64,000 nt of DNA from a candidate division CPR3 bacterium GWF2_35_18 (GTDB lineage Bacteria > Patescibacteriota > CPR3 > GWF2-35-18). The notes under the pieces are model-generated. The model searched no databases. It had not been told where the DNA came from and was given only the letters and a program-made list of their open reading frames with translations. Each line of letters opens with the position of its first letter. The stretch's first letter is position 1. Where the stretch lies: the NCBI GenBank assembly GCA_001771135.1, contig MESW01000008.1:87630-151629 (forward strand). Direction: 5' to 3'. The position numbers and the translations under genes were made by a program. Positions 7,541 through 59,950 of this stretch are shown one piece after another.

Positions 7541-7560
7541 ATTAATTAGAGGTTTAAATT

Positions 7561-8238: not shown

Positions 8239-8239
8239 T

Positions 8240-9511
8240 ATGAAAAAGTATCTGCTTTTTTTATCTCTAATTATTATCGGAGTTCTTTCAATCGTATTTT
8301 TTAAATATTATTCCGATGAGATTAATGAAAAAAATAAAACATTAACGACAAGAAATAGCCTTATTTCCCAAAAAAAGGAAAGTTTAAAAACTGAGGATTT
8401 AGATATTTTACTAGACGGTAGCATACATAGCTCTGGTGAATGGTTACTTCGTAATCAGAAGGCAGATGGTTCTTTCAACTATGAACGTGATGTGACTACG
8501 GGTGAAATTACAGATAGCGAGAATAATATAGTGCGTCAATCAGGAACTTTATACGGAGTGGCAAAACTTTATAACTATACTAAAGACACTAGATACAAAG
8601 AAACACTTTTAAAAGGTTTTAATTATTTTGATACACTAGCCGAAACTAAAGATCTAGAGGGAACGACAGTTAGATACTTTAAAGAAGGCGGTAGTGTTCA
8701 AGCAAATACCGTAGCTCTACAGATTTTGGCGTATTTGGAACTTGCGAAAGCTGATCGCGATTTACCCTCTGACTTAAGTACAAAATTAGAAGAAATGGTT
8801 AATTTCATTAAATTATCTCAGCAAAGTAATGGTGCTTTTCAGAACTATTTTTTAAATAAGATCAAGATTGAGTGTTGGGAATCAGATTATAACAATGGAG
8901 AATCCTTTTTTGCTTTAACTAGTTACTATAAATATTCATCCGATGAAACTTTAAGACCTCTTTTAGAAATATCCGCAAATTACTTTTTAGAAAAGTACAA
9001 AGACTTTAATATTGAATTTTACTCTTGGGGGATGATGGGTTTTTCGCAGCTTTATGAAATTACTGGAAATACTAACTACCGAGATTATATTTATCAAAAT
9101 ACTGATAATATGATAAATGTAGCTGGGACGAACTTTCTCGGGATTGGGGCGTATTTAAAATCGACAAATGAAGCAAATCCATTACCAGATTATAGTCAAA
9201 TAGTTCAGACAGAGGGACTGCTATATGTTTATAAAATAGCGGTAATGGATAATCCAGAAAAAGCTTCGACTTATAAGAATGCGATTATAAATAGTCTAGC
9301 GTTTCATGCAGTCTTTCAGTCCCCTTGGGAAGAAACTCTTCCAAACAGAATATATGATGTTGTCAAAGGTGGTTTTTGTAACCGTTCGGACTGTTCTATC
9401 CAAAGGATTGATATGGTTCATCATGCTTTAAGTGCATTTATAGATGCTCTTAATTTTATCGATAATAGTAACCTGCAACTTTCTGTTGCAAATAGTATAA
9501 ATACAAAATAA
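8240..9511 (+). CDS. Membrane-anchored protein with alpha/alpha-toroid (prenyltransferase/squalene-oxidase-like) repeats
   Basis: N-terminal TM helix. Repeated Q..(D/N)G(S/A)F motifs (QKADGSFNYE, QQSNGAFQNYF) typical of alpha-toroid repeat proteins. No LanC-type Cys/His motifs. Confidence 0.45.
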   Translation: MKKYLLFLSLIIIGVLSIVFFKYYSDEINEKNKTLTTRNSLISQKKESLKTEDLDILLDGSIHSSGEWLLRNQKADGSFNYERDVTTGEITDSENNIVRQSGTLYGVAKLYNYTKDTRYKETLLKGFNYFDTLAETKDLEGTTVRYFKEGGSVQANTVALQILAYLELAKADRDLPSDLSTKLEEMVNFIKLSQQSNGAFQNYFLNKIKIECWESDYNNGESFFALTSYYKYSSDETLRPLLEISANYFLEKYKDFNIEFYSWGMMGFSQLYEITGNTNYRDYIYQNTDNMINVAGTNFLGIGAYLKSTNEANPLPDYSQIVQTEGLLYVYKIAVMDNPEKASTYKNAIINSLAFHAVFQSPWEETLPNRIYDVVKGGFCNRSDCSIQRIDMVHHALSAFIDALNFIDNSNLQLSVANSINTK

Positions 9512-19807: not shown

Positions 19808-20998
19808 TTACTTTAATTTTAGCTTTGCATAATTACGTTTTCCAGCTCTGATAATGGTTCCGTCTGAAATATTAATTTCTTGATGCCAATCGGAAATTAC
19901 TTTATCTTCTACCGTAACAGCAGATTGTTCTATTAATCTTTTAGCTTCCGATTTACTACTTACTAATTTACAATTCAGAATAAGATCCGTAATATTAGTT
20001 TTTTTGGTAGAAATTAAGCATTCCTTAATTTTATTCGGAATGCCTTTTTCTTGAACTACTCTTTCAAAAGTATTTTCCGCCTGTTGAGCTTCTTTCTTCG
20101 AATGATAAAATTCGGTAATTGTAAAAGCTAGTTTTTTCTTCAGATCCATCGGATTTTCTTCTCCACTCTGGAGTTTCTTTCTCATAACCTCAATTTTTTG
20201 AAGCTCTACATCTGTTAATAAAATAAAATAGTCGATGATCATCTCATCACTAATACGCATTAGTTTTCCGTACATATCCTTGGGATTTTCTGTTAAAGCA
20301 ACATAATTACTGTAAGACTTACTCATTTTGCGACCATCGAGTCCATTAATAATCGGTGTTGTGAGAACCCATTTTTTTTTGTTATGATAAAGTTGTTGTA
20401 GATTTCGTCCCATCATCATATTAAAAGTTTGATCTGTTCCTCCAAGTTCCAAGTCAACGTTCATAGCTACAGAATCATATCCTTGCAGAAGTGGATACAA
20501 AATTTCGTGAGTGAAAATAGGGAGATTTTTTTTAATCCTTTCCTGAAACATATCTCGCTCAATAAGTTGCTGGAGTGTAGTTTTGGCTGCAAGCTGAATG
20601 ATTTCAGGCATTGCTAGTTTATCAAGCCAGTCACCGTTTCGTTTAATCGTTATCTTTTTAAAATCGAGGATTTTACTAGCCTGAGACTTCCAGGTTTTAA
20701 AATTTTCTTCAATTTGAGCATCGGTGAGCATCGGTCTTGTAGAATCTCGGCCTGTCGGATCTCCGATTTTGACCGTTCCGTTTCCAATCAAAAGGATCAC
20801 TTCATGTCCAAGGTCTGCAAACTGTTTTAGTTTTCGTAAGACAACACTATGCCCTAGAGTCAAAAGTGAGCCAGTTGGATCTATTCCTAAATATAACTTG
20901 ATTTTTCTTTTTGCCATTAACTTTTTGAGAGTTTCTTTGTCGGGAAGAATCTGAGCTACTCCTCGAGTGAGGACTTCATCAATATTTATATTTTTCAT
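19808..20998 (-). CDS. tyrS: Tyrosyl-tRNA synthetase
   Basis: [13 protein letters not shown] (HIGH-type), KMSKS, C-terminal S4 domain. 396 aa. Confidence 0.9.
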
Positions 20999-21184: not shown

Positions 21185-22375
21185 TTACATTCGTGAGAAT
21201 CTCGCGTGAGCTTCTTTAGCAAATTGACTCATGATTTTATAGTTTGCGTTATCATGAATTGAGGAGAGACCAAATGGAATTAAGGTTCTTCCTGTTCCTG
21301 GTTTGAGTAGACCAAACCAGATTTCGGGTGGAGAAATTATTTCCATTAATTTCCCTTGTTGTAATATTGTAGCGCATATCTGAGGTTTGATCACTGTAGG
21401 AATTGCTCCTACAGTCGATAACATCTTTTGTAAGCGAATGTTTTGAGGTTTATTTTTGAGGATAAACCGGATAAAACGAACGTTTTTGAAAAGGCGTTCA
21501 GAGATTTCCTCCAATGTTTGTAGATTAAGATTTTCTTGTGGGAAAACCTCAGCAAACTGGTTTCCATAGGTTTTGATTACGGTTTCATTTTGATTATGAC
21601 CGTTATTAATTGTTCTTGAGCTTATTTCTGGATAACTTTGGGTATTACTTAACCAGATGCCAGAAGCTAGAGTGGCGAGAAGATCGTTTTCGGAATCAAG
21701 ATAAAGAGGTTCAGAATACCACTTTAGAGCTTCAGAATTCCAGAAACGATATGAGATTTGAAAGAATTCTGTGAGAGGAACTCTTTTTGATACTTGCCAC
21801 GCAGTAGCGATGAGGGGTTCAAAACCAAAAGCTGTCATCATCAGATGGTTCATTGCGATAGACAGCATTTGCGGTCCTCCGGGGATAGTATAGCCATTGT
21901 TTACAACCGTGATTCCTGTACGAACTTCAGCCGAAAGTCCGATCGTGGTTTGCACTAGATTCGGATGTTCAAAGAGCTCCCTTATGCTAATGAGTATGGT
22001 TATAGAACCAGGAAAGTCCATAAATTGAGGATTTTTGGCGCAACGAACAACATCCCAGAATAGCTTATTTCTAGTAAGCTGAAAACTGGAAGTAGCAATT
22101 GGGGTATTGTCTGTTTCATCGTAGGAGATCCAGGTTAAGAGTTTCATTTCTCGCATTTCGGCTGCGATTTCTTCTGGTGTTTGTCCGGCCAGAATACCAT
22201 GTCCGTGATGTCCATAAACAGATTCAACTATTTGTTTATGATGAGAGGCAAAAAGTTTCAACTCCTGATTTTGAGTTAAGAGCTTGAGAGAGGAAACGGT
22301 ATGGAAATGCATTCCAGATGCGTTTGCTCTTTGAGTTAATCTTTCAATTTGAGTGGTTAAGATTCCAGTACCCAT
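21185..22375 (-). CDS. Hypothetical protein (396 aa) under T-box control; visibly higher G+C than its neighbours
   Basis: Uninterrupted ORF. AAGGAG RBS 8 nt upstream of the ATG. No family recognised by eye. Preceded by a canonical T-box leader. Confidence 0.6.
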   Translation of the reverse strand: MGTGILTTQIERLTQRANASGMHFHTVSSLKLLTQNQELKLFASHHKQIVESVYGHHGHGILAGQTPEEIAAEMREMKLLTWISYDETDNTPIATSSFQLTRNKLFWDVVRCAKNPQFMDFPGSITILISIRELFEHPNLVQTTIGLSAEVRTGITVVNNGYTIPGGPQMLSIAMNHLMMTAFGFEPLIATAWQVSKRVPLTEFFQISYRFWNSEALKWYSEPLYLDSENDLLATLASGIWLSNTQSYPEISSRTINNGHNQNETVIKTYGNQFAEVFPQENLNLQTLEEISERLFKNVRFIRFILKNKPQNIRLQKMLSTVGAIPTVIKPQICATILQQGKLMEIISPPEIWFGLLKPGTGRTLIPFGLSSIHDNANYKIMSQFAKEAHARFSRM

Positions 22376-22454: not shown

Positions 22455-22870
22455 AAAAAGCTCGTCCTTAAATAGAAAATTTTCTATTTAAGGACGAGCT
22501 TTTAATGAACTCGTGGTACCACCTTTAATTTCAGGTACAAAAAACACTCCAATTATGGAGTGTCCTGCATTTAATCATTTTATACCTGCTTGTTGATTCA
22601 AGTGCTTGACTTTGCAGTGACACTTTAGCCTTTGATAACGGAGGCATTCCGTCCCGCATTTAGTGCGAGAAGCTCCAGAGGGTATTTCGATTTTTTTACG
22701 TTCTGCAGGTTTTCAGGATTCCCTTGCTTTCTAAAAGTTACCGTAAAATTCTACTATTTCTCTTTCATCGCTTTTATACCGAATTGACTTAAATTGAACA
22801 TCAAAATAACGTTAATTCGGAGATATCCAACTACAATCTTATTATTTAATGAAGTTGAATATATAAAATT
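22455..22870 (-). promoter_or_regulatory. T-box riboswitch leader (tRNA-sensing antiterminator) upstream of the 396-aa unknown protein and tyrS
   Basis: Minus strand AAAUUAAAGGUGGUACCACGAG (complement of 22510-22531) against T-box consensus AAUUAGGGUGGNACCGCG. The antiterminator is AAGG[UGGUACC]ACGAG paired with CUCGU-CCUU, a 7-nt bulge. The terminator GCUCGUCCUUAAAUAG/CUAUUUAAGGACGAGC (22460-22499) is followed by U6. The Stem I start GCGAUGAAAGAGAAAUAGUAG carries a K-turn-like GA motif and an AGUA S-turn. Confidence 0.8.
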
Positions 22871-34719: not shown

Positions 34720-34796
34720 TGGTGGACCCAAGTGGACTCGAACCACTGACCTTTACAATGTCAATGTAACGCTCTAACCAACTGAGCTATGGGTCC
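34720..34796 (-). tRNA. tRNA-Val (anticodon GAC), CCA encoded
   Basis: Minus-strand sequence GGACCCATAGCTCAGTTGGTTAGAGCGTTACATTGACATTGTAAAGGTCAGTGGTTCGAGTCCACTTGGGTCCACCA folds as a cloverleaf. Anticodon loop TTGACAT. Confidence 0.85.
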
Positions 34797-36868: not shown

Positions 36869-37948
36869 TCAGCTTACTTCTGGGATAAACTGTTCCAGAA
36901 TCTGAGCCATTTTTTCTAGAGAAGAGATAGTTACATATTCATTAGTTGCATGAGCGTTTGCAGTATTTGGTTCCGTCAGAATTACTGGAATTTTTTTGGA
37001 AGTAAAGAATCTGGCATCAGATGCTGCTGGATCACGAGTGATTGAAACTTTTCTTTTCAAAACTTTCTCAGCAATTTCATGATAAATTTTGAGATATTGA
37101 TTATTTTTATCGGTAAAAAATGGATTACCATCTACAGTTTCCTTAGGTTTTATTCCAGTTAAATTTGTAATTTTATTAAAAATTTCTTTTTTTGTGTATT
37201 TGGCTGGATAACGGATATCACATTCAGCTGATGCGTAATCAGCGATTTTGTTACTAGCCTCTCCTCCATAGATTTTTCCGATATTAAAAGAGATGCACCA
37301 ATCTTCTAAGCTTTGTGGGTTTTTAAAAGTTTTACGTAGTTTTATACAGGCTAACATTAATTTATCAATAGCGCTTTCTCCGAGGTATGGTCTAGAAGCA
37401 TGACAAGCGACTCCTTTGGTTTCAAGTGTAAAACTCAAAACTCCTTTTTCTTCAACGATAATATCGAAGTTATGTCCTCCGTCTGGAATAAAGGTAATAT
37501 CGGTTTTGTATTTTTCTTTCTCAAGGAGATATTTGACGCCGTCAAATCCGCCTATTTCTTCATCAGTTGTGAGCATTAGGGCAAAAGAAAGTTTGGGATT
37601 TTGTTGATAAAGTTTTTTCATGATGACCATCATGGTAGCGCAAGCCCCTTTCATATCACCAGCGCCTCGAGCGATCAGCTTATCCCCTTCAATTTTTGGT
37701 TTAAATTGATCCTTCTCTGCTTCGATGACATCAAGATGTCCGTTTAGAATTAGTTTTGGATGTTTTGTTTCTTTAGTTAAGATCATTACGGAGGGTTTAT
37801 CGTTGGAAACGTATTTTTTGATGATCATTTTGGTGTCTTTGAAGTAATCGGCAGCAACATCAACAACTTCTTTGAGTCTTTCAGGTTTACTTCTAATTGA
37901 TTCAATCTGAATAAGTTTTTTAGTTAATTCTAAAATTTCTTTTTTCAT
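36869..37948 (-). CDS. M20-family metallopeptidase (DapE/ArgE-like deacylase)
   Basis: LNGHLDVIEAE and ARGAGDMKGA metal-binding motifs of the M20 family. Confidence 0.75.
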   Translation of the reverse strand: MKKEILELTKKLIQIESIRSKPERLKEVVDVAADYFKDTKMIIKKYVSNDKPSVMILTKETKHPKLILNGHLDVIEAEKDQFKPKIEGDKLIARGAGDMKGACATMMVIMKKLYQQNPKLSFALMLTTDEEIGGFDGVKYLLEKEKYKTDITFIPDGGHNFDIIVEEKGVLSFTLETKGVACHASRPYLGESAIDKLMLACIKLRKTFKNPQSLEDWCISFNIGKIYGGEASNKIADYASAECDIRYPAKYTKKEIFNKITNLTGIKPKETVDGNPFFTDKNNQYLKIYHEIAEKVLKRKVSITRDPAASDARFFTSKKIPVILTEPNTANAHATNEYVTISSLEKMAQILEQFIPEVS

Positions 37949-38837
37949 AATTTTCTCCTTTAATTATTAGACATGCTCCAAGGCATGCTCCATGATCTAT
38001 GTTGGAAATTACGATATCTTTAAAATGGAAAAATTTAAAGGTATTTTTTTTATATTTTTCAATAGCTGGCGTCAGAAATTTTTCAGCTGATTTTTTCAAA
38101 GATCCATTAATAATAATTCTTTCTGGATTATAAAAATATGATACTATTTGAAGAAAATTATATAAATGCTCTGTAAAAATCAAAATCGCCCTTTGTGCAT
38201 CTGGGTCATCATTTTTACTTTTAAAAATTTGTTTGGCATCTTTATTTTGTCTGCTAATTTCTTGGTATATTTTTGCCAAACCTTTTCCAGATAAAAAACT
38301 ATCAATAATTGTTTCTTTGTCATGTAGCTCTGGAACTAAATATTTCATTTGGGATATTTCTCCCAGGTTATTTGAATAACCTCCAATAAGTCGTCCGTGT
38401 GAATAAAAAGATAATCTAATTCCTGTTCCTAAATTTATAAGTACAAAGCTTTCAGTTTTTTTCCCTAGTCCAAAAACTGCTTCTGCTTTTGCCATTGCGT
38501 TTACATCATTTTCTAAGATGATCTTTCTTCTAAATTTCTTTTCCCATTTTTTTACGAGAGGATAATTAACATATCCTCCCAAAAGAGAACTGTAGGTGAT
38601 TTTTCCCTTATTCACTACACAATTGAAACTAATGCCGATAACTTTTACTGAATCTTCAATTCTTTTTTGAATTAATTCTTCTAATATTTCTAAAAATTGT
38701 AGACTATTATGCTTAAATTGATCTGTTGAGATCTTCTCACTATCGATTAGATTATATCTATTATCAAAAGAACAGATCTCGATTTTTGTCCCACCAATGT
38801 CAATTCCAAGAAAATAGGGTTTATTTAATTTTTTCAT
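37920..38837 (-). CDS. ROK/BadF-type sugar kinase-like ATPase
   Basis: YFLGIDIGGTKIEI N-terminal ASKHA motif. Confidence 0.6.
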   Translation of the reverse strand: MKKLNKPYFLGIDIGGTKIEICSFDNRYNLIDSEKISTDQFKHNSLQFLEILEELIQKRIEDSVKVIGISFNCVVNKGKITYSSLLGGYVNYPLVKKWEKKFRRKIILENDVNAMAKAEAVFGLGKKTESFVLINLGTGIRLSFYSHGRLIGGYSNNLGEISQMKYLVPELHDKETIIDSFLSGKGLAKIYQEISRQNKDAKQIFKSKNDDPDAQRAILIFTEHLYNFLQIVSYFYNPERIIINGSLKKSAEKFLTPAIEKYKKNTFKFFHFKDIVISNIDHGACLGACLIIKGENYEKRNFRIN

Positions 38838-39954
38838 AGTAGAAAGGTTTTTTTTCTTTGTCGATATCTAAAAATACTTTTGTGAATTTTCCAAAAGATC
38901 TTTTTAAATCTATTAAATATTTTAAATCGAATGTATTGTTATTACTCAAAACTGGAACACTATGGTACGGTAGTTTATCAATATCTTTACGAATTGGAAT
39001 AATTCCTAGTCTATTGAATTTTGGAGATACAGATAAAGGTAAGCTATGTGGTACTGTTTTTTGAAGATAATCAATATCATCTCTAACCTTCAAATAAGCA
39101 AAATAGCTAAAGATACATTTATGTGTTTTTTCTTTAAGTGAATTTCTTATTTCTGAAGCCTTTGGAGAAATCTCATCGTCAGATAATTTTGTATTATAAA
39201 CATCCATTAATATTTTCTCTTCATTATCAGTAGTAAATACAATTTTATAAATTACCGGAAATACTGAATTGTATTTTTCTAAAAAATCTGTATTTCTATC
39301 TTCATAAAGTTTTTTGTATTCAGAGATTCTTTTATCCATTTTTTCAGAGAAATCAGGAACAGTTTTTTCCATCTCCGATAAATCAATAATATTCACACTT
39401 TTTGATAATTTTAATTGACTGTTTAATTCTTCTAAAAAAACCCTATATGCTATCCAGTTAGCTTTTGGTACTCCAGTAAATGGTCCAAACCCTCCTTCTG
39501 TAAAAAGTGTAATTCTAGCCCCATTCTTGTAAATATTCGTAATAAGTTTGGTGATAACTGAAAGTCTATGTAGAGCAAGGACTTCTCCCATGTCAGGAAA
39601 GATTCTATTGGTTTTCAATGGAACAGGGATTTTAAACGGAAAACCTAAGATTGTAAATTGTATAGGTAGATTTTTACTCGTAAAATATGAAATTCTTTCT
39701 ATCCATTTTTTAATATTAGAATTAATAAATTCCACTGGTCCAAAACGATAGTTTTCATCTTGAAATATTGATAATATCTTTTCTTCAATTGAAGTGCCTG
39801 TAATTTGGGGAATTGGAATTAATATTCTATTTTCTAGAAAATCTGCAATGTCATTGATACTGACTATTTTTTCTTGAATAAAATTGTTCCGTAAATTTTT
39901 ATTTGAAAGCTCTTCAAAGTCAATTGAAGGATAAACATGAGGATTTGATTTCAT
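38821..39954 (-). CDS. Hypothetical protein (377 aa); distant paralog of the 41664-42728 protein
   Basis: Shared core blocks with the other copy: PIQFTILGFPFKIPVPLK / PVPITISFAVGSRMPNLLK and GARITLFTEGGFGPFTGVP / GMQILLFDEATLFAGVIPG. Confidence 0.5.
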   Translation of the reverse strand: MKSNPHVYPSIDFEELSNKNLRNNFIQEKIVSINDIADFLENRILIPIPQITGTSIEEKILSIFQDENYRFGPVEFINSNIKKWIERISYFTSKNLPIQFTILGFPFKIPVPLKTNRIFPDMGEVLALHRLSVITKLITNIYKNGARITLFTEGGFGPFTGVPKANWIAYRVFLEELNSQLKLSKSVNIIDLSEMEKTVPDFSEKMDKRISEYKKLYEDRNTDFLEKYNSVFPVIYKIVFTTDNEEKILMDVYNTKLSDDEISPKASEIRNSLKEKTHKCIFSYFAYLKVRDDIDYLQKTVPHSLPLSVSPKFNRLGIIPIRKDIDKLPYHSVPVLSNNNTFDLKYLIDLKRSFGKFTKVFLDIDKEKKPFYYEKIK

Positions 39955-40733
39955 AAGATTTCCTTAAAAATATTATCTAAATTTTCTAAAACTATATCAG
40001 CTTTTTGTTTTACTTGTGAAGTGGCAGTTCTTAAAGCAACATTAAGTCCAAAATTTTTGTCAAAAATAGGCAGATCATCATCATCATGAGCAAAGACCAT
40101 GATTTCATTTTTTGAAATGTTTAAATGTGTTCCTAAAATAAAAGCCGCTTGTTTTTTAGAAACTCCAGGATTAACAAAATTAATGTTTCCATTGTCATGA
40201 ACAGCGTTTGATTTTATGGGAGGCTTAGGGTTATTAAAAGTTATAATGGCGATTTGAGAAGGATGTTTTCTATAAGCCAACTCAAAAAGATTCTCAATAT
40301 TTCGATAAATTTTAATCTTAATATTTGGAATTGATTCAAGAAATTCGTCTTTTCTATTAGGTTTAATAAATGCATAAAGTTGGGTGTGATTTGGATCCCA
40401 AAAGCCGATAAACTTGATTTCGTTATGATAACGATAAATATAGTTTTCGATTCTTTCAATCTCGATATTTTCTAGAGACGAAAAAAAGAGATTCTTTCTT
40501 TTGCTATCACAAATACAGCTGCCATCAGATATTATTAATGGAGCATTTAATTTTAGGTCATTTAGCTCATGATGAGTTGTTAAGAATCCTCTTCCTGTAG
40601 CTACAGTACAGTAAATTCCTTTATCTTGGATTTTTTTAATAATTTTTTTAGTTTGAATGTCAATTTTTACATGTTTTTGTTTTAAAGTACCATCAATGTC
40701 AAAAACACATAATCTAATATTTTTTTTATTCAT
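39951..40733 (-). CDS. HAD-superfamily hydrolase (Cof-like, subfamily IIB)
   Basis: Motif I LCVFDIDGTL. C-terminal cap and GDDDND-like motif. Confidence 0.75.
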   Translation of the reverse strand: MNKKNIRLCVFDIDGTLKQKHVKIDIQTKKIIKKIQDKGIYCTVATGRGFLTTHHELNDLKLNAPLIISDGSCICDSKRKNLFFSSLENIEIERIENYIYRYHNEIKFIGFWDPNHTQLYAFIKPNRKDEFLESIPNIKIKIYRNIENLFELAYRKHPSQIAIITFNNPKPPIKSNAVHDNGNINFVNPGVSKKQAAFILGTHLNISKNEIMVFAHDDDDLPIFDKNFGLNVALRTATSQVKQKADIVLENLDNIFKEIL

Positions 40734-41517
40734 AATTTATTAATTTTTCAAGAAATAGTGGCAAATCTTTCGGTCCTTCAATCTGTTCTATAGCCTGATT
40801 TTTCAGTTTAGTATTACCTTTTCCAACCAATACGAAATTTTCTGCAAATTCGGCCATGGAAAGATCGTTATCATCATCACCAAAAACCATGATTTCTTTA
40901 GTTTTAATTTTATAATTACTACAAAGTTTCTGAATTCCAGATTTTTTAGAAATATCCTTATTTACAAAGTTTAAAGTATCATCGTTATAAGTAGCGTTAT
41001 ATTGACCATTTAATTCCAACTTCTTTATGGTTTTAATAAATAGCAGAGATGGTTTATCTTTGGGAAGATCTTCAATAAAGCAATTATTATTTGAGTAAAA
41101 TTTATATTTTAAATAAGGATATTCTTTAACAAGATTCTCTTTTCCCTTTTCAGAAATAGCAATATGCAGTGTATGATCTTTAGGGTGCCAATAACCGTTA
41201 AAAATGATTGATTCTCTATATTTTTTAATGAAATCAGCTGCTTGTTCGACTATTTCCTTTTCTAAAGGGGAAATAAAAAGGGTATTTTTGTTATTATCAA
41301 TCATGCAGCTGCCATCCAGAATAACGTATGGAGCGCTATAAGTTATTTTTGATATTGCGTTAATAGTCGTATCATGTCCGCGTCCAGTGGCGACAGTATA
41401 GAAAATATTTTCTTTTTGTAGTTTGTGTATAGTTTCAATTAGCTTTTTTGATATCGGCTTTCCCTTTTCTTTCAAGGTTCCGTCAATATCAAAAACACAA
41501 AGTTTAATTTTATTCAT
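40726..41517 (-). CDS. HAD-superfamily hydrolase (Cof-like), tandem paralog
   Basis: MNKIKLCVFDIDGTLKE. FGDDDNDLSMAE motif. Confidence 0.75.
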   Translation of the reverse strand: MNKIKLCVFDIDGTLKEKGKPISKKLIETIHKLQKENIFYTVATGRGHDTTINAISKITYSAPYVILDGSCMIDNNKNTLFISPLEKEIVEQAADFIKKYRESIIFNGYWHPKDHTLHIAISEKGKENLVKEYPYLKYKFYSNNNCFIEDLPKDKPSLLFIKTIKKLELNGQYNATYNDDTLNFVNKDISKKSGIQKLCSNYKIKTKEIMVFGDDDNDLSMAEFAENFVLVGKGNTKLKNQAIEQIEGPKDLPLFLEKLINYE

Positions 41518-41565: not shown

Positions 41566-41611
41566 AAGGGGATGAAGCTGCAATGTAAATACATTGAAGA
41601 TTCATCCCTTT
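41566..41611 (-). terminator. Hairpin downstream of the GC-rich 354-aa gene (putative terminator)
   Basis: AAGGGGATGAA/TTCATCCCCTT 11-bp stem enclosing a CAATGTA/TACATTG sub-palindrome. Confidence 0.45.
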
Positions 41612-41663
41612 ATGGGGGTTAGTCTCTCATCTCCTTCTTCTTGTTGAATCTCAGCAAAAAAAC

Positions 41664-42728
41664 TTACTTGCCGAGGTAATAAAATACGAACGGTACACCT
41701 TGTGTACCAAATTCGTTGGGAGAAATTCGAACCGGGATAGCGCCAGGGTGTTCACGTTGGAGCCGATATTCCGGAACAATATGGACGACGAGTCGTCCAT
41801 TCGCATCTCGATAAACCACTGGCATCCCATGATTAGTTAAAACCTTGGTGACATCAATGACCACTCTCTCACTTTTGTCGGTGATGCATGCGTTGATGTG
41901 GTTTTGGAAGCCGAGATCATTTAAGAGTCGTTCAAAGAGCCGGTTCTGTTTGCGGAGTGCCAGAGTGCGTAATACCCGTTCAGACAGAGTGATTGCCGTT
42001 TGCCATGTTTCTTCACCGATGAGCATTCGTAGTACAAGATAGTCTTTGGCTCGATTGGTATAGAGAGGATCCATGGCATCGGGATTGGTCATCCCTGGAT
42101 AACAGCAGGCCATGGCGTAGGTAATGGCATCATGACTAGACATGGGGATATGTTGAGCCTGTTCCCAGGGAAGCATTTCTGGAGTCATGGGGATAATGGT
42201 GATAGGCGCTCCGATTGCAGTTATGATTTGATTGAAATACTGAAGTTGTCTTTCAACATCTTCAGCTACAATTCCAGGAATCACTCCTGCAAATAGGGTT
42301 GCTTCGTCAAAGAGTAAGATTTGCATTCCAGGTTTATAGATTCTTTGGATCTTTTCGTTGATGAAGCGGAATACCCAAGCCATGTGGAGCCAACCTAAAG
42401 TTGGATAAGCAATCAGTTCTTTAAACTTGAGAAGATTCGGCATCCGTGATCCGACCGCAAAGGAAATTGTAATGGGTACCGGTTGCTGTAGATTAATTGC
42501 CTGTTGAATAACATCCCAAAGACGGATTTTTTCATCGTCGGAGAGTTTAATGCAATTTTCAGTGTGTCCGAGGATGATTTTTAGGACAGCCATAGCAGTG
42601 TCCGTTTCCTTGGGTAAATGGTATTGATCCATCCGCCAGCCAAGGAGACTTTCCAAAAAGGCAACTTCGGTTGCCAATGTGGTCATTCCATTGGTGTGCG
42701 GCAGTATGATGGATGGTCGAGCGTTCAC
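41664..42728 (-). CDS. Hypothetical protein (354 aa), GC-richer; paralog of 38821-39954
   Basis: GTG start with AGGAGGTG SD 5 nt upstream. Composition clearly differs from the flanking AT-rich genes. Confidence 0.55.
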   Translation of the reverse strand: MNARPSIILPHTNGMTTLATEVAFLESLLGWRMDQYHLPKETDTAMAVLKIILGHTENCIKLSDDEKIRLWDVIQQAINLQQPVPITISFAVGSRMPNLLKFKELIAYPTLGWLHMAWVFRFINEKIQRIYKPGMQILLFDEATLFAGVIPGIVAEDVERQLQYFNQIITAIGAPITIIPMTPEMLPWEQAQHIPMSSHDAITYAMACCYPGMTNPDAMDPLYTNRAKDYLVLRMLIGEETWQTAITLSERVLRTLALRKQNRLFERLLNDLGFQNHINACITDKSERVVIDVTKVLTNHGMPVVYRDANGRLVVHIVPEYRLQREHPGAIPVRISPNEFGTQGVPFVFYYLGK

Positions 42729-43733
42729 AAAACACCTCCTAAGGAATTAATGGTGAGCTAACTTGCCGCCCACCTGATCCGCAGGGGGCGGATTAGTGAA
42801 TTCCGTTATTAGCGGGATTTTCGAGGATATTTATTGCTATAGTACCTTCGTTGATTTTTACGCCCTCCTTCTTTGGGTCGTTTTGAATATCTTCCAATAC
42901 CTCTCGGGGCAATTTTTTTACACATTACATTCTCTCCAAATGGGGTTTTACTCTTCCAGATAGAGTATATAAAAGGCTTAAGGTTAGACTTTGCCATCAA
43001 GCATGTATTTTCGAGTATCTCTGGTAATACTCTAGTTATCTTTTTTAGGTCATAGCTGACTAGGCTGTATCAAAAGATAACGATTTTAATGTAAGTCGAT
43101 TCTCCTTTGGTCTATTGACCAGAATTTCCCTTACGGGTTCATAAAACAGGCCTCCATTTTTGGTGGGGGAAAAGATTTGGTAGCTAGAAATAGGTTTATT
43201 ATCTACCCTATCTTTTTCCCCACCAAGATAATTGCTTGATGGATTTTAAAATTTATTTTTTAGGTGCAAAAATTTTATCTTTCGAATAAAATGAGGAATT
43301 TATAATTATTTTTACTTCTCATTTTGTCTAAAGGATAAAATCCTTTATATTTATTTAGATCTAACTAAAAAAACCTCCATTTTTAGGGAGGTTTTAATTG
43401 CTTTTTTATTTAGTTTGTTTTAGTTCCTACATACCTCCCCAAAGATTAATGCCTACAAAAAGGACCATAATAAGGCAAATGATGACAAAAAGATAAGTCA
43501 TCCAATCAATGGATCGGACCTGGGTGGTAGCATTTATATGAGATGGATTTGATTTCGTGTTAGATGTCATTTTTACAAATAATAATAAAACCTGATGGGA
43601 CAAGCTTCTACATATTTTGCCAAAAGGTCTTTGATTTGTCAAGCAGAAATACTGTGAGTACTTTTTTATAAATATTAAATGAGGAGAGGCATTTTTAAAT
43701 TATATTTAAAAATGCCTCTTATAAAAGGCGGTG

Positions 43734-44171
43734 TTAATCTTGTTTATGTTGCAAGCGATAGCTGCGATGTTCGAAGGCTTTTTTTACTTCTAGAAGTAAC
43801 GATCGTTGATTGTAATATTGTCCCATAAACCAATGTATGCCCATTCCCATGGCTTCTCGGCCAATAGTCCAGTCTGTCCCGAATTCTGGATCAGTTGGTA
43901 CAACCGCTACTGTGAATCGATGTAAACCTTTTAGATCTGCCTTGATCTTTTGGAGCAGGGCGATTGTTTTTGGATGATTCATTTTTTCCACAATGATAAA
44001 GATAACGTCAGCTTTGCAGATGTCATCGTCCGTCATAGTTTCATAATGAACCATTTTTACGGTATGCTGGAATTCTTTCACAATGAGTGTTTCTAAGTCA
44101 TGTGCCAGCACACTTCGGTGACCGTGAAGTATCGTTATGTTGAGATGAGAGGAATTAACATTATCGTTCAT
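43734..44171 (-). CDS. Hypothetical small protein, receiver (CheY)-like topology
   Basis: 145 aa with an alternating hydrophobic-strand and helix pattern. Paralogous to the next ORF. Confidence 0.4.
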   Translation of the reverse strand: MNDNVNSSHLNITILHGHRSVLAHDLETLIVKEFQHTVKMVHYETMTDDDICKADVIFIIVEKMNHPKTIALLQKIKADLKGLHRFTVAVVPTDPEFGTDWTIGREAMGMGIHWFMGQYYNQRSLLLEVKKAFEHRSYRLQHKQD

Positions 44172-44202
44172 TTACGGAAATCCTTTCTGTCTGAAGTGGT
44201 TA

Positions 44203-44637
44203 TTAATCAAGGCGATTTCTTGTAGGTCTTGTTATTGCAATAAGGCGATCCATGGTTTCAAATGCTTCTTGAAGTTCTTGTTCTAATTCCTTTCCGGAAT
44301 AGGTCCCGATGAAATAATGTGCTCCGAAAGCAATAGCCTTTCGGCCTAAATTATAATCAATCACTTGTAGATCGTTAACATCAACGACGGCAATGATATA
44401 TCTGATCATGCCACGAACGATGGTTCTAATTGTAGTCAGTAATGTTAAAATTCGTTGGTTGTTGTTTTGAGGGGTGACGACCATAAAGACGTCATAGGCG
44501 ACTAATAGTGATGCAGCGATATTGTCAAACTGCATGATTGTAACGTGAAATCCAAAGGATTTTAATAAGGAGGAAAGTTCTTCACAAAAATCACAATGAT
44601 CTTCATGAATGAGAATTAGGTCTAGATCATAGTTCAT
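44203..44637 (-). CDS. Hypothetical small protein, receiver-like (tandem paralog)
   Basis: 144 aa. LDLILIHED...DVFMVV...IIAVVD pattern. Confidence 0.4.
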   Translation of the reverse strand: MNYDLDLILIHEDHCDFCEELSSLLKSFGFHVTIMQFDNIAASLLVAYDVFMVVTPQNNNQRILTLLTTIRTIVRGMIRYIIAVVDVNDLQVIDYNLGRKAIAFGAHYFIGTYSGKELEQELQEAFETMDRLIAITRPTRNRLD

Positions 44638-44985
44638 TGATTTTGTTCTCCGTTTGTCAAGGTTTGTTGTTTAATTCAATCACAACATCTGTTTCGATAG
44701 TCTGTCTCCTGTTTTGAAATATAACGAATACGATGGTTACCCAAATATTTATTCATTGGGGAAATTTAAAGCCAAAAATTAGTTTCAAATCCCCCCAATG
44801 AAATATTCAAGGTGCAAGCTAATTGAAAGATTTAACATCAGAGTTTATAAAAAAGGTTAGTCGAGAAATCCTATTGCTCAAAGAGATCTCAACTAACCTT
44901 TTTAAGGTCTCTCTCCTTTATTTATTAACTATTACCATTACAGTATTAGATTGTCAAGAATTTATTTTACATTAACGTATAGATA

Positions 44986-46251
44986 ATGAGTGGAAATTCT
45001 GATAAAATGATATTTCCCATCAGAGAGTTAAAATCCCCATTTTATTCAAAGACAGAAAGGAGAAGATCCAGAGACAAAGTAAACTTTGCTAGTTTTCAAA
45101 TATCAACCCTCAAAAATTTCGTTCATTCAGTTAGAAAGGAGACTACTGTGGCTGGAAAATTGCCTGATCAATCTTTGTATGGGTTCCTACCAGAAAGTGG
45201 ACAGTTATCACTTGGTCCTTTGTCTGTGATCCAAGGCATTCACTATTCACGATGTGTCTGGGGAGGGTTGACACTCGTTCCGCTAGATTCAACATGGACG
45301 AGATTTAATATTTTAGACGTCGTTGCTCCGGATGATCACCTCATGCGGCCGTTTTGGCACCCAATAATTCAGGATCTGGGAGTTTCAGGACATCTTCTGC
45401 GGTTCTGTGATTCCATGCTCAAGATGGGAATGGTAATAGATCCTCGATACACAGGGATTGATATTGATTACCATAATCCAGAATATTGGCTCCAAATGAT
45501 CTATTTTATAAAAGACCTTATTGAGAAGATGATCAAAGCAAACAAAGAAAACCTTCTCAACCTCAAAAATACATCATGGGATCGTGTTTATATTCGGCCC
45601 ATGGCCTTATGCCAAGCACAAGGAATTGGTCCAGTTCAACCAGACATCGCACATCCCACTATGGCTGATTTGTATCTCATAGCCCAAGCTTTCGCTGATT
45701 ATGGCAAAAGGGATGCGGTTTTGGTCCGTGCTCCAAGAGCTCTGGCCACGATTACCGGTACCATCAAGATGTCCGGTAACTACGGGTCATATCTGACGTT
45801 GAAGAAGATAGCTCTCGATGCTGCTAAATTAGTTGGCATTGAGGCCGATGACTGTTACCAGGTCAAGTACGACATTAATGGTAGATTAGTCCTCGGAGAA
45901 GCTAGTACCTGTGCCCTGGGTACAGTTTTTCAAAGAAAGTCGGGACCCAAGTTAATCGTTCCAGATCCACTATCCACGGATACCTTACCTAGCTTTACGG
46001 CACGATGGGTCATCAGACTAGCTCAAGAGCAACTCGGGATTAATGCTGGCTATGGAGCCATTCCAATTCGTCAATTTGAGGAAGAAGTTCTTGAACTTAT
46101 GCGATGCGGAAACGCTACACGCGTTAAACCTGTTAGTGCTATTGGCCGTCGTCCGTTAGTCACGGAAATCGGTAACCAAATCTCCGTATTATACGAAAAA
46201 GTTGTTCGCGGAGAACTTTATCCCGAACACTCAACTGTAATTCAAATTTAA
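44986..46251 (+). CDS. Fold-type IV PLP-dependent aminotransferase-like protein (BCAT/D-aaT/ADC-lyase family) with about 170-aa N-terminal extension
   Basis: C-terminal 250 aa collinear with E. coli IlvE: YIRP..., TIKMSGNYGSYL (against AAKAGGNYLSSL, with the Lys), DINGRLVLGEAST...IVPDP (against DVNGYISEGAGENLF...FTPP), LPSFTARWVIRLAQE. Confidence 0.6.
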   Translation: MSGNSDKMIFPIRELKSPFYSKTERRRSRDKVNFASFQISTLKNFVHSVRKETTVAGKLPDQSLYGFLPESGQLSLGPLSVIQGIHYSRCVWGGLTLVPLDSTWTRFNILDVVAPDDHLMRPFWHPIIQDLGVSGHLLRFCDSMLKMGMVIDPRYTGIDIDYHNPEYWLQMIYFIKDLIEKMIKANKENLLNLKNTSWDRVYIRPMALCQAQGIGPVQPDIAHPTMADLYLIAQAFADYGKRDAVLVRAPRALATITGTIKMSGNYGSYLTLKKIALDAAKLVGIEADDCYQVKYDINGRLVLGEASTCALGTVFQRKSGPKLIVPDPLSTDTLPSFTARWVIRLAQEQLGINAGYGAIPIRQFEEEVLELMRCGNATRVKPVSAIGRRPLVTEIGNQISVLYEKVVRGELYPEHSTVIQI

Positions 46252-46270
46252 CTTTCACTTTTTCACCTAT

Positions 46271-46307
46271 GGAGGGGGGACGTAACAAGCTTACTTGTTC
46301 CCCCTCC
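46271..46307 (+). terminator. Rho-independent terminator after the aminotransferase-like gene
   Basis: GGAGGGGG.../...CCCCCTCC stem with an inner ACAAG/CTTGT pair, followed by a T-rich tract. Confidence 0.6.
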
Positions 46308-46362
46308 TTGAAATTTTCATTTAATGTTTACTTATTACTGATTGTTATTCTATAATAAAATT

Positions 46363-56161: not shown

Positions 56162-59100
56162 TTACAAACCCCTTCTTTCTTCCTGAATCTTTTCATGTTC
56201 AATTTGTTTGTCAAGAGAATCTATCATTTCATCCAACCATCGCTTTACATTATCATTATCTTCATTTTTTTTAAAAGCTACTAACTGTTCCTTCTTTTGT
56301 TGATAGTGTAGGCTTGCAGGACCAGACCAGCCTTCGGTATAAAAGTTTGCACCCATTTCTTTCCGAACATCGTTCCTACCTCCATATCGTGCTAAAACCT
56401 CTCTTGCCCAACATATTTTTCCTTCCTCTCTGAAAAGGAGCTTCGGAACGAAATAGGCGACATACCAAGCTCTCTTTTTAACATTTGCATCTACCCACTT
56501 CCATACTTTTTTTGGTGGGAAAAACGTTAATGCACCTGACATTCCCGCTGGCGAATGTTCACTTCCTCTCAGCCATTCTTTTATATGAAATGCTCTTGAA
56601 TCAATTGGTGGACCAAGATATTTAGCAGCGATATCCCATACCTCCGAGGGGTGATTTCGTGCAATTCCATCGATTACCTCTTGAGTCTGCGAATGATATT
56701 CCCCTAAGATACTATCATCTTCGCCAAAATGTTCCAGCATTACTTCCGCTAAGGGCAAGCTCTTCTTTGGATAAAGCTCGATAAACTTATTTCCAATCTC
56801 TTTCCAGTGAAAGTCGTCCATTTGGTTTCGTCTACCTTCTGACGGTTTTTTAAACAATGAAGGATGTGTGAGAAGCTTTAAAGTTAGGGTATCTGGTAAT
56901 TTGTGCTGAGACTCTTTTCTTAGATAAAAGAACTGATATAAATCAAGAGCAATCGAAACAGCATAATCCTCTGGACATTCGAGCAAAAATTCTATCCACT
57001 TCTTAAATATGTCCTCAGACAGATCTCGAATAACACTTCCGAGACCAAATACACGAAAATGTCCAGGCGTGATTACTTTCTTTTTGGCTAATTCCAACAC
57101 TCTTAAAGCTGCCCTGTATGACATACCAGATCGCCAAGTAAGGTCGGATACCCAGCTAGCTAGTTTTTCGTCTTTTGTTAAATCGTCTAGCAACGACTCC
57201 CATTTCTCCTTATCTTTTTCAAACAATACTCGCAGATATCCACCGATAAAGTAATCGCTAGAGTTGGGCTGTCTACTTACCTTACGCTGTGCATCTAATA
57301 GCATTGGTAATAAGGAAAAATCTTTATCCAGTTGACCCAGTTCATTACCAAATCGATACCCGCTCTTTGCTTCATTTGTTACTAACCAACTAAGTTCTGG
57401 TTTAAGCAGCTTAGGATCATCGACTACCTGTTGTGCAAGTTTTTTTATTGGAATTTCTGCCTTATCTACCCTGTTCCCGTCTTCGTCGAAACTATCTTCC
57501 AGGAGATCCATTCCAACATATCTCCTCATGAGAGAACTAAAATCGCTACCTTCCAGATCATCTCTTAATTTCTCCCATTTTTGTTTCATCTCAGCTGGCA
57601 TATCTTTTCCGTCATAGTGGAGAATAGCAATCACTCTTTCTAGAATTTTTTCCTTGTTCCCATAAGGATTTTTTGATAATTCAGTGATGTTTGCAATTAT
57701 CATGTCTGTTAGCTTCGGAATCTTACCTAAACCTCTTGAGTTATCAAGAAGAACATCAATTGCCTGATCCTGCTCATCTTCTGGTAGGACTTCCAGTTTG
57801 CCATATAAAAGTTCCCAAACCTTCTGATAGGCATCCCACAATTCGTCATATGTTTTTGCTCTCCACAGTTGAGCTTCTCTTCGCACTCCCTGATACTCCG
57901 CACCTATCATACGGGTAAAATGTTGGGATTCTAGTGCCTTATCACACGCCCGAATAGCAAGTTTCCGTCCTTCTTTTGAATCAGAATTGAGTGCCTCCTG
58001 AAGGACAGGTAGCCTTTCTTCTGGTGGTGCTTCAGTTGATGAAAGACCTACAGAAAATAGGTCTGCGAAAGTTCCACTAGCGTTATTGGCATAAGTTTCG
58101 TTTTCAGCCTCACCAAGAGCAAGAAGCAATCTTGCAGCATCAGCAAATAACTCTCTCCATACAACTATCTTTTCTAAAGCCCAAACAACATTTCTACGAG
58201 CTTCCCTAAACTCTAACAGTTCTTTTTTTCCCCACTTACCAATTGTTTCTTGTAAAGTTGCCAATGCCGACTCAGGATCAGCTTCGGTCAATTTTAAAAA
58301 AAAATCTCCGCCGAGCTTGGTTTTTATAAGTGTCCCATCAGAAAACAAACCATCTTTACCTAAAATTGCTTTAGCAAAATCTTTTCCTTTTTCTGAGGTT
58401 GCGATGTAAGGTAAATGGTCAAAAAATCTTTCGAGAAGATCAGCTCTAAATTCTTGTGGGATACTTTCAATAAATTCCTCGAACTTCTTCTTCGTAAAAC
58501 CGTGAGATTCCCACCATTCTTTAAGCAAGTATATTCTCAGCATGAAGGGGGTGACATAAATGTAATGCTGTCCCTGGATAATTCCTCTTTTTCTTTGTTC
58601 AGTCACTGCGTCTTGAAAGTCTGCAAATTCTACGCCCATCGTTTGTGCGACCCACTCGGATTCCTTTGATAATTTCCCCTCATAGCCAACTTTGCTGAAG
58701 AGGGATAGTCCCTGCAATACCTTCTTTGTTTTTCTAAAATGATCAGTTGTAAGATCTCGTCCACCAATCAAGCGGTTCATTAAAGCCTCATCGCTAACAT
58801 CCAAAAAATCTTTTTGGTCATCGGTTTTACTGGCTAAATAACTTTCAGCTAGTAAAACGCCTATTCGTGGATAGCCGTCTGCAAATTGACTTAGTCTATC
58901 AATAACATCATTTGGCAAGGCTGATGCTTCGGCTTTTAGGATTGTTTTAATGGAATCTTGACTTAATTTAGTTACTTTAAGTGATAAGGAAGGAGATGGG
59001 ATATTTCCTATCTCATAAGACAAAGTGATCAAAGCTAGTCGATTTCCTCTGGAAGAGAATGAGCGGACAAATTCGTCGTGCTGTTGTAAATCGCATTCGT

Positions 59101-59950
59101 CTATAACCACAATGGCAGACAGGTTTTGGTCATTTTGCAAAGTTGTGAACAAGGATGACAAACGGAAAGCGTCCGCCTTGACATAAATAACCCTTTGTTT
59201 TAGGTCGTCGGGAGCTAAAGCTTCATAAACAAACCTAGTTTTACCAATTCCTGAAAGCCCAGTAATTCTGAAAACAACACATTGCCCGTTACAATTTCTC
59301 AGTTTATCCGATATCTCTTCGGCTAATTTCTTTCTCTCGTCATCAAACACAAACGCCTTTGGCAACTGGATTTCTCTGTTTTCTTCCCATGAGGAATACG
59401 GCAAACATTGGCTAAGATCGTTTTTGAACCAAGCAACTAAAGAAGGAAAGCGTTCAATAAAACCAATCAACTGAGTCGCCGTGTAAAGGCGGACTTTAGG
59501 ATTGGGGTAACCCAATCGAACAAGTTCGTCTTTAATGGCTTGCTCTCTTGGGGCAGTAGCTCTTGGACTTGTTATGTCGGCAAATAGAACGAGCGTATAA
59601 GTTCCGTCAGCATCAAGAATTTTTTTTATTTCTGGCTTCAGCGGTTGATTTAAATCGTTTCCTATATGAAGTTCTTTTTTACAGGCAGCTGGAATAAGGT
59701 CGGAGGATTTTATTTGGTATCCACTTGTTCCATTGGGAATCACTTCATCCAAAGTCGGACCTGCATCATTTACATAAGCATCAACTCCACCATCTCCAAC
59801 ATTAATACACTGAGGAACATTGATGATATTTTGCCCAACTCCCACTCTTCCAGCCTCTGCCCACAAGAGTCTTCTAAAGGAGTCAACGGCACGATCTTGA
59901 CCAAGATTGGTTAAATCACTTACCTGCAAGGTAAACGGTGTAGTTGTCAT
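56162..59950 (-). CDS. Large STAND-type NTPase with N-terminal nuclease-like domain and C-terminal helical repeats (Avs-like antiviral candidate)
   Basis: 1262 aa. N-terminal GDGGVDAYV...GYQIKSS is PD-(D/E)xK/Mrr-like. Walker A ITGLSGIGKTRFVY, Walker B AIVVIDECD. About 900-aa helical C-terminus. Confidence 0.65.
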   Translation of the reverse strand: MTTTPFTLQVSDLTNLGQDRAVDSFRRLLWAEAGRVGVGQNIINVPQCINVGDGGVDAYVNDAGPTLDEVIPNGTSGYQIKSSDLIPAACKKELHIGNDLNQPLKPEIKKILDADGTYTLVLFADITSPRATAPREQAIKDELVRLGYPNPKVRLYTATQLIGFIERFPSLVAWFKNDLSQCLPYSSWEENREIQLPKAFVFDDERKKLAEEISDKLRNCNGQCVVFRITGLSGIGKTRFVYEALAPDDLKQRVIYVKADAFRLSSLFTTLQNDQNLSAIVVIDECDLQQHDEFVRSFSSRGNRLALITLSYEIGNIPSPSLSLKVTKLSQDSIKTILKAEASALPNDVIDRLSQFADGYPRIGVLLAESYLASKTDDQKDFLDVSDEALMNRLIGGRDLTTDHFRKTKKVLQGLSLFSKVGYEGKLSKESEWVAQTMGVEFADFQDAVTEQRKRGIIQGQHYIYVTPFMLRIYLLKEWWESHGFTKKKFEEFIESIPQEFRADLLERFFDHLPYIATSEKGKDFAKAILGKDGLFSDGTLIKTKLGGDFFLKLTEADPESALATLQETIGKWGKKELLEFREARRNVVWALEKIVVWRELFADAARLLLALGEAENETYANNASGTFADLFSVGLSSTEAPPEERLPVLQEALNSDSKEGRKLAIRACDKALESQHFTRMIGAEYQGVRREAQLWRAKTYDELWDAYQKVWELLYGKLEVLPEDEQDQAIDVLLDNSRGLGKIPKLTDMIIANITELSKNPYGNKEKILERVIAILHYDGKDMPAEMKQKWEKLRDDLEGSDFSSLMRRYVGMDLLEDSFDEDGNRVDKAEIPIKKLAQQVVDDPKLLKPELSWLVTNEAKSGYRFGNELGQLDKDFSLLPMLLDAQRKVSRQPNSSDYFIGGYLRVLFEKDKEKWESLLDDLTKDEKLASWVSDLTWRSGMSYRAALRVLELAKKKVITPGHFRVFGLGSVIRDLSEDIFKKWIEFLLECPEDYAVSIALDLYQFFYLRKESQHKLPDTLTLKLLTHPSLFKKPSEGRRNQMDDFHWKEIGNKFIELYPKKSLPLAEVMLEHFGEDDSILGEYHSQTQEVIDGIARNHPSEVWDIAAKYLGPPIDSRAFHIKEWLRGSEHSPAGMSGALTFFPPKKVWKWVDANVKKRAWYVAYFVPKLLFREEGKICWAREVLARYGGRNDVRKEMGANFYTEGWSGPASLHYQQKKEQLVAFKKNEDNDNVKRWLDEMIDSLDKQIEHEKIQEERRGL

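Follow-up and report, generated by a model that had tools for sequence, protein, structure and literature searches.

Within a window of 64,000 nucleotides from the candidate division CPR3 bacterium GWF2_35_18 (contig MESW01000008.1, positions 87,630 to 151,629 of the forward strand), positions 41566-46310 form a GC-rich stretch with four genes, here called A, B1, B2 and C. A preliminary description of the sequence had read this stretch as one horizontally acquired module for amino-acid or D-amino-acid metabolism. We think it fairly probable that it is instead a patchwork in composition, made up of three units that have nothing to do with one another: an operon that begins with A and runs past the left edge of the stretch, the paralogous pair B2-B1, and the divergently transcribed gene C. 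All contigs with the region come from one population (GWF2_35_18 / RIFOXYB2_FULL_35_8) of the Candidate Phyla Radiation (CPR), sampled in groundwater metagenomes, and the gene arrangement is identical in every one of them.

Gene neighbourhoods in other genomes

The division into units is seen where homologues of the genes occur elsewhere. A homologue of A lies directly upstream of a gene of the DIT1_PvcA family in seven of seven loci from other genomes, namely L001 (Nealsonbacteria), L002, L004 and L018 (both Daviesbacteria-like), L005, L017 (Patescibacteria UBA2772) and L019; scans of metagenomes and genomes contributed three of the A loci, together with one locus of the C family. A gene for a HAD hydrolase is placed between or near A and DIT1_PvcA in L001, L005 and L017, with a ROK kinase gene next in L001 and L017. 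The gene order of the window (A, HAD, HAD, DIT1_PvcA, ROK) is thereby matched in L001 and in part in L005 and L017. As the order A-(HAD)-DIT1_PvcA-(ROK) is conserved and is the same in the window, the operon crosses the left edge that had been proposed at 41566. Judged by this gene order, A is the first gene of a predicted operon conserved across CPR bacteria. The case illustrates how the boundary of a compositional island can cut through a conserved operon.

Relatives of B1, B2 and C are missing from all A loci in other genomes. Relatives of A or B were likewise not found at the three loci with C homologues, which are short contigs and were searched by tblastn (L006, L007) or by their ORF (open reading frame) list only (L020). 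These two results weigh against a single acquired (D-)amino-acid module, in which C would supply or modify a substrate, A would process it and B1/B2 would regulate. Such a module would account for the contiguity of the four genes between two strong hairpins, for the atypical codon usage common to A, B1 and C, and for the identical arrangement throughout this CPR3 population; an aminotransferase could also plausibly feed an amino-acid-modifying enzyme of the PvcA/Dit1 type. We nevertheless hold it to be very doubtful. Besides the missing partners at the A and C loci, the units are divided by host-like, AT-rich spacers with terminator-like hairpins of their own, C is divergent, the closest relatives of C in every comparison act on L-amino acids, and neither mobility genes nor flanking repeats were found. 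A functional link between C, the B genes and the A operon is possible, without comparative support.

Identity of gene A and its operon partners

The product of gene A, listed as unknown in the preliminary description, has no match in Pfam or NCBIfam. It misses the gathering threshold of PF05141 (DIT1_PvcA), against which only one of the seven family members obtains an E-value of 0.11. Six homologues with 39-46% identity were found, all in CPR-type genomes or metagenomes. The best matches of the A-family profile in the PDB are the isonitrile synthases 9dhm and 9dh4 (E 1.4e-3, over the conserved core motif), and its comparison with PvcA (3e59) gives an E-value of 0.078. Comparing the A family by hhalign with the DIT1_PvcA proteins that adjoin A homologues yields a probability of 95.2% (E 2.7e-8), as against at most 0.6% for control pairs of unrelated profiles. 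With relaxed settings the two families align collinearly from end to end, over their full length to the C-terminus, pairing TDKxxR with SPKxNR, NHGMPVV with YHGVPV and a terminal FYY. The profile of the neighbouring Dit1-like family in turn matches 9dhm and PvcA with E-values of about 1e-14, and a direct tblastn search with A gives a hit (E 0.008) within the Dit1-like gene of L005. Between A and its own Dit1-like neighbour BLASTP gave nothing significant, the relation being seen by profile methods only. The profile comparisons thus support homology at the superfamily level, and by this measure A is a divergent, full-length, remote paralogue of the PvcA/Dit1-type isonitrile synthases. Its family is an unannotated protein family that has no Pfam model.

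Several observations weigh against this assignment and against the operon. The link from A to PvcA depends on profile methods applied to shallow alignments (7 and 5 sequences). Both CPR paralogues, A and the Dit1-like protein, stay below the NCBIfam equivalog cutoff for PvcA (35.9 versus 600 bits), and isonitrile chemistry is therefore attributed to them by analogy only. In the window, A is separated from the first HAD gene by 146 nt that include a strong hairpin, and the operon is known here from gene order.

Compared with PvcA/IsnA and yeast Dit1 (PF05141; 3e59, 9dhm), which have homologues in both A and the neighbouring protein (38821-39954), the core motif is retained as P-x-P-I-x-x-S/L-F/A-x-x-K/R-x-P-N/x-x-L-K followed by Y-x-P-G-x-x-I. 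However, A falls under all Pfam and NCBIfam thresholds and carries changes within the core motif (Lys to Arg, PD to PT, SDG to FDEA). Whereas the known pathways include an Fe/2-oxoglutarate oxygenase (PvcB/IsnB) or a P450 (Dit2), the CPR system consists of a fixed pair of diverged paralogues with HAD phosphatases and a ROK kinase; no tailoring oxygenase of the PvcB/IsnB or Dit2 type was found in the operon of the window or in L001, L002, L004 and L005. A further difference is that some A homologues bear an additional N-terminal domain of about 150-190 aa. This domain is present in P0003, P0004, P0005, P0007 and the L017 gene at 7449-9044 and absent from A of the window; in the PDB it weakly matches the S1/OB domain of eIF2-alpha (E about 0.01). 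No significant remnant of it was found in the 1-kb gap upstream of A.

The gene of an M20 deacylase of the ArgE/DapE type (36869-37948, minus strand) shares 29 nt with the end of the ROK gene, and this overlap suggests that its translation is coupled to the operon. The deacylase may be a lineage-specific addition, as it is not found beside the operon in L001. Two contigs with pairs of A and Dit1 bear the labels 'Gammaproteobacteria' (L018, in synteny with the Daviesbacteria locus L004) and 'Promethearchaeota' (L019), and a fragment labelled 'Bdellovibrionales' (P0020) is at least 90% identical to C. All three are probably mis-binned CPR contigs.

Gene C

The longest ORF of C (44986-46251, plus strand) encodes 421 aa, and about 170 N-terminal residues had been described as an extension of unknown character. 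Judging from the sequence and its homologues, GTG 45148 is almost certainly the start of C, which then comprises 367 aa. This start is preferred on account of its AAGGAG ribosome-binding site, a gap-free alignment with P0011 (368 aa, also with a GTG start) from residue 1 to residue 1, and one existing GenBank annotation of a 367-aa protein from the same codon. The longest ORF adds 162 nt (44986-45147), its first 54 codons, which are AT-rich and unconserved; GC falls to 31% upstream of the GTG, and the homologues of C begin at the position of residue 55 in the 421-aa form. From GTG 45148, positions 115-316 of a type-II branched-chain aminotransferase (BCAT) model align with residues 123-334 of C, so that, measured against type-II BCATs, C is not extended. 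What is left of the N-terminal part belongs to fold type IV itself, as its N-domain. The supposed extension is thus mainly a start artefact, and it shows that an over-extended ORF call can yield a spurious 'novel N-terminal domain'. An in-frame insertion of 54 aa, suggested in a MAFFT alignment by a shared 'MSGxSD' start, was also considered and was rejected in favour of GTG 45148.

C belongs to a very small family. A HMMER scan of 1.84 billion cluster representatives returned five proteins, one of them a 50-aa fragment identical to C; the nearest homologue, P0011, shares 48-49% identity and P0012 (353 aa) 31%. The 367-aa protein passes the Aminotran_4 model (PF01063) marginally, with 29.1 bits against a cutoff of 28.5, and the model is matched by all four family members compared with it (best E 4.2e-10). 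Searching the PDB with the C-family profile gave 13 sequences at E <=0.01, of which 12 are BCATs (best E 2.7e-9). The collinear PDB segments cover the N-domain with its HYG motif, the YIRP motif and the catalytic lysine, and C shows the two-domain architecture of fold type IV.

The residues expected to bind pyridoxal 5'-phosphate (PLP) or to take part in catalysis, Arg85, Arg150 (in YIRP), Lys207, Tyr212, Glu251 and Thr284, are conserved. Their roles are assigned by reference to E. coli IlvE, in which the lysine forms the Schiff base, the glutamate contacts N1 of the pyridine ring, and the arginine and threonine hold the PLP phosphate. Lys207, within TIKMSGNY, aligns with the BCAT lysine (GKAKVGGNY, compared with G-x-x-K-x-x-x-NY) and is kept in every homologue that covers the site, in agreement with the fold-type IV protein and catalytic lysine of the preliminary description. 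Since most of the PLP-binding residues are intact, C is most likely active.

Against this stands the second phosphate-binding threonine (GTA motif), which is Asn322 in C and asparagine in its family (GNAT). The AlphaFold2 model of C is also of low confidence, with a predicted local distance difference test score (pLDDT) of 55.5 overall and values below 50 for residues 1-87 of the 421-aa form. The NCBIfam IlvE equivalogs are not reached either, with scores and cutoffs of 39.0/307 bits (PRK13357), 36.3/250 bits (TIGR01123) and 26.5/279 bits (PRK06606).

BCAT ranked first for C in all sequence and structure comparisons, and C was not closer to D-amino-acid aminotransferase (Dat) or aminodeoxychorismate lyase (PabC). 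No evidence was found for the D-amino-acid role that had been proposed. C matches type-II BCATs in length. However, its identity to the solved BCATs (PF01063; IlvE type II, 1wrv, 6gkr, 3uyy) is only 11-20%, its N-domain contains about 50 extra residues, and FEG near the substrate pocket is replaced by W-G-G, in addition to the exchange of the second phosphate-binding threonine for asparagine. By these alignments C is a deep-branching, very rare, BCAT-like PLP enzyme of fold type IV. We take it to be a probably active PLP enzyme with BCAT as its nearest relative, and a predicted aminotransferase. The family represents a nearly unsampled deep branch of fold type IV and could have a new substrate specificity.

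Downstream of distant C homologues we noted a conserved protein of 166-172 aa (L007 1926-2444, L020 788-1288) with an N-terminal membrane anchor, several cysteines and no Pfam family. L007 also has a downstream tRNA gene.

The B1 and B2 pair

B1 and B2 are paralogues with 26% identity (E 1e-17), as the preliminary description had recognised when it called them CheY-like tandem paralogues. Homologues outside this CPR3 population were found neither in an index of 5.8 billion proteins nor in viral contigs. There is no Pfam match up to E 10, and a sequence search of the PDB returned no receiver, although UniProt names B2 a 'Response regulatory domain-containing protein'. Profile comparison separates the pair from A, from the N-terminal domain of the long A homologues, from Dit1 and from C; the small ORFs beside Dit1 in L004 and L005 or beside C homologues are unrelated as well.

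The receiver-like character of the pair was assessed by hhalign against a receiver profile made from a small set of sequences (CheY, Spo0F, PhoB, OmpR, NarL). The match runs in register over 112 of 144 columns with a score of 22.3 and an E-value of 0.005, at a probability of only 7%. Column-shuffled profiles scored 12.2 on average (standard deviation 2.5), which places the match about four standard deviations higher, with two of 150 shuffles as good; unrelated controls scored 13-18, all below the receiver match. In the alignment GAHYFIGTY of B stands opposite the receiver motif GASGYVVKPF. The AlphaFold2 model of B2 (pLDDT 53) alternates beta and alpha elements as in a (beta-alpha)5 domain and is too poor for a fold assignment.

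By the same reference sequences, B1 and B2 lack equivalents of the CheY acceptor Asp57, of Thr87 and of Lys109. Asp57 corresponds to a gap or stands opposite Val/Ile, Lys109 is opposite Gly, and the Asp12/Asp13 pair remains only as Glu-Asp in B2. The pair resembles CheY-like receivers and pseudo-receivers (PF00072) in size (about 120-145 aa), in beta/alpha alternation and in a weak in-register match that includes G-A-x-x-Y/F-h-x-K-P-F. Unlike them, it has no Pfam match, phospho-acceptor or output domain, and no kinase gene lies nearby.

From these comparisons B1 and B2 are probably non-phosphorylatable, putative receiver-like (pseudo-receiver) proteins. It is a serious possibility, if short of probable, that they have some other small alpha/beta fold and an unrelated role, the UniProt name having come from a permissive profile match; the absence of Pfam and PDB matches agrees with this. 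The in-register match, well above the shuffles and above every unrelated control, and the (beta-alpha)5-like alternation of the predicted secondary structure argue for a receiver-like fold. Of the earlier reading, then, paralogy, beta/alpha alternation and the missing phospho-acceptor stand, and a CheY-like fold is putative.

Base composition and origin of the genes

The GC-richer island of the preliminary description is borne out, and its four ORFs are all present. Positions 41566-46310 have 39.9% GC compared with 34.7% in the rest of the window (35.1% for the whole), the maximum among 593 sliding windows of 4745 bp. Relative to the 47 other ORFs of the window, GC is 45.6% in A (z +3.3), 40.0% in B1 (z +1.6) and 37.2% in B2 (z +0.7); in C (z +2.5) it is 43.0% for the 421-aa ORF and 44.6% from the corrected start. 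The codon-usage log-likelihood, corrected for amino-acid content, gives z-scores of -3.5 for A, -3.1 for B1 and -2.6 for C, with B2 (-1.4) only marginal. The excess of GC at synonymous third positions (GC3s) follows the same pattern (z +3.4 for A, +2.1 for B1, +2.4 for C and +1.2 for B2). Synonymous-site composition is therefore atypical for A, B1 and C. The stretch is uneven inside: 43051-43733 (30.9% GC) and the 510-nt spacer between B2 and C (31.0% GC) are host-like.

The two hairpins named as its bounds are both present (z -3.5 and -3.8). The right one, 3' of C, has a T-rich tail. The left one, a stem-loop that separates A from the first HAD gene, lacks a U-tract on the coding (minus) strand and so does not qualify as a canonical terminator.

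The HAD, HAD, DIT1_PvcA and ROK genes (37920-41517) have 27-29% GC and host-like codon choice. They also constitute the most AT-rich block of the window (z about -2). The GC-rich extreme, A, and the AT-rich extreme are thus found within one conserved operon.

Local deviation in GC and synonymous codons, and gene content limited to one lineage, are features that the region shares with horizontally acquired genomic islands. In contrast to such islands, its composition is heterogeneous with host-like spacers, and its atypical gene A sits in an operon of otherwise host-like genes. Hallmarks of mobility are missing too: no integrase, transposase, flanking tRNA or meaningful direct repeats were found around the region, the repeats being short and at chance level, and PADLOC and PHROGs gave no match to a defence-system or phage family. 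The sole tRNA of the window is at 34720.

We infer that A, B1 and C were probably acquired from higher-GC CPR-like donors, a foreign origin being plausible from their codon usage and narrow distribution. Of the proposed horizontal acquisition this much survives for the individual genes, though no mobility genes, tRNA or direct repeats accompany them. Another explanation is that the anomaly is intrinsic to the genes, through family constraints or low expression, and that they are long resident in CPR3. In line with this, A-family genes are also enriched in GC at third codon positions (GC3) relative to their locus neighbours in L001, L005 and L017, so that the anomaly may in part be characteristic of the family and not a sign of recent transfer; spacers within the region resemble the host in composition, hallmarks of mobility are missing, and the divergence of B1 and B2 to 26% identity implies long residence after duplication. 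We regard intrinsic composition as doubtful nonetheless. The excess lies at synonymous sites and persists after correction for amino-acid content, the A homologues of L002 and L004 show no GC3 enrichment, other CPR3-like or nearby lineages contain no relatives of B1, B2 and C, and the genes that share an operon with A lie at the other end of the compositional range.

Proposed functions

PvcA is described as joining a carbon of ribulose-5-phosphate to the amino group of tyrosine, which yields an isonitrile, and Dit1 as forming N-formyl-tyrosine (PMC7345447; PMC7949033). Isonitrile or N-formyl chemistry from an amino acid and ribulose-5-phosphate is known for PvcA and Dit1 only (PMC7345447). In the three-unit reading that we prefer, A would be an ancient, diverged paralogue at the head of an operon with one or more Cof-type HAD phosphatases, a Pfam-positive DIT1_PvcA protein and a ROK sugar kinase. 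By analogy with the characterised enzymes, A and DIT1_PvcA may, jointly or in sequence, build an isonitrile or N-formyl derivative of an amino acid using a sugar phosphate, while the ROK kinase and HAD phosphatases might handle the sugar-phosphate co-substrate or a by-product. The second unit would comprise the duplicated orphans B2 and B1, perhaps with a small membrane ORF. If, as is probable, B1 and B2 are receiver-like domains that cannot be phosphorylated, they would act by protein-protein contact. C, transcribed divergently, would be a separate transaminase for a pair of L-amino acid and 2-oxo acid. Within this reading the analysis shows what the genes are, where C starts, which residues and which gene order around A are conserved, and how the stretch is composed, whereas the substrates of the enzymes, the role of B1 and B2, and when and in which direction genes were transferred are inferred.

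CPR bacteria have minimal biosynthetic capacity and are generally thought to be without specialised metabolite chemistry. No paper on isonitrile synthases in CPR/Patescibacteria turned up in a literature search within a limited collection. As a long shot, the paired PvcA/Dit1-like operon of CPR bacteria might make an isonitrile or N-formyl amino acid for metal handling, for the envelope or for host interaction, and CPR3 might have recruited foreign C and B1/B2 to supply or gate the substrate. If the paired operon does make such a compound, that would give the CPR a rare example of specialised metabolite chemistry.

Features and further observations

The coordinates of the genes, their neighbours and the non-coding features are collected in Table 1.

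Table 1. Genes and other features in and around the GC-rich stretch (positions in the window).
Feature	Position	Strand	Description or basis
Gene A	41664-42728	-	354 aa; GTG start, AGGAGG ribosome-binding site
Rest of A operon	37920-41517	-	Pfam, NCBIfam, GC
HAD/Cof hydrolases	40726-41517 and 39951-40733	-	
DIT1_PvcA protein	38821-39954	-	
ROK kinase	37920-38837	-	
B1	43734-44171	-	145 aa, paralogue of B2
B2	44203-44637	-	144 aa, paralogue of B1
C	45148-46251	+	367 aa from GTG 45148, AAGGAG 6 nt upstream
Composite stem-loop	41561-41641	-	Inverted repeat I17, 15-nt arms 93% complementary; fold -35.3 kcal/mol, z -3.5
Intrinsic-terminator-like hairpin with T-rich tail	46271-46307	+	Sequence; fold -24 kcal/mol, z -3.8
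Non-coding stretch upstream of A	42729-43369	-	640 nt; no ORF of at least 80 aa
Candidate small ORF	43427-43570	-	47 aa from ATG; 71 aa from TTG 43642; one hydrophobic helix
B2-C divergent intergenic region	44638-45147	.	AT-rich; hairpins 44752-44802 and 44850-44903
Left neighbours of region		-	Two Cof-type HAD hydrolases, DIT1_PvcA-family protein, ROK kinase, M20 deacylase
Right neighbours of region	beyond C		purB, purA

The first ~320 nt of the non-coding stretch upstream of A are still GC-rich (39.8%), and the A leader contains a hairpin at 43160-43226 with 27-bp arms (I1; fold z -4.0). The candidate small ORF is flanked by terminator-like hairpins at 43685-43719 and 43370-43395 (I7, terminator scan) and has no family match in Pfam, PADLOC or PHROGs. 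In the untranslated regions Rfam detected no riboswitch or leader above threshold, with sub-threshold chance matches only. The leader hairpin and the two between B2 and C thus form a set of three long, stable hairpins in non-coding DNA that lack an Rfam match.

Elsewhere in the window, a 1262-aa ORF (56162-59950, minus strand) has no Pfam family at E <=0.001. A 396-aa ORF without a Pfam family (21185-22375), followed by tyrosyl-tRNA synthetase (19808-20998), is preceded by a T-box leader (22487-22777, minus strand) that scores 100 bits in Rfam, more than the gathering score. A protein of this kind under predicted T-box control in a CPR genome may merit attention.

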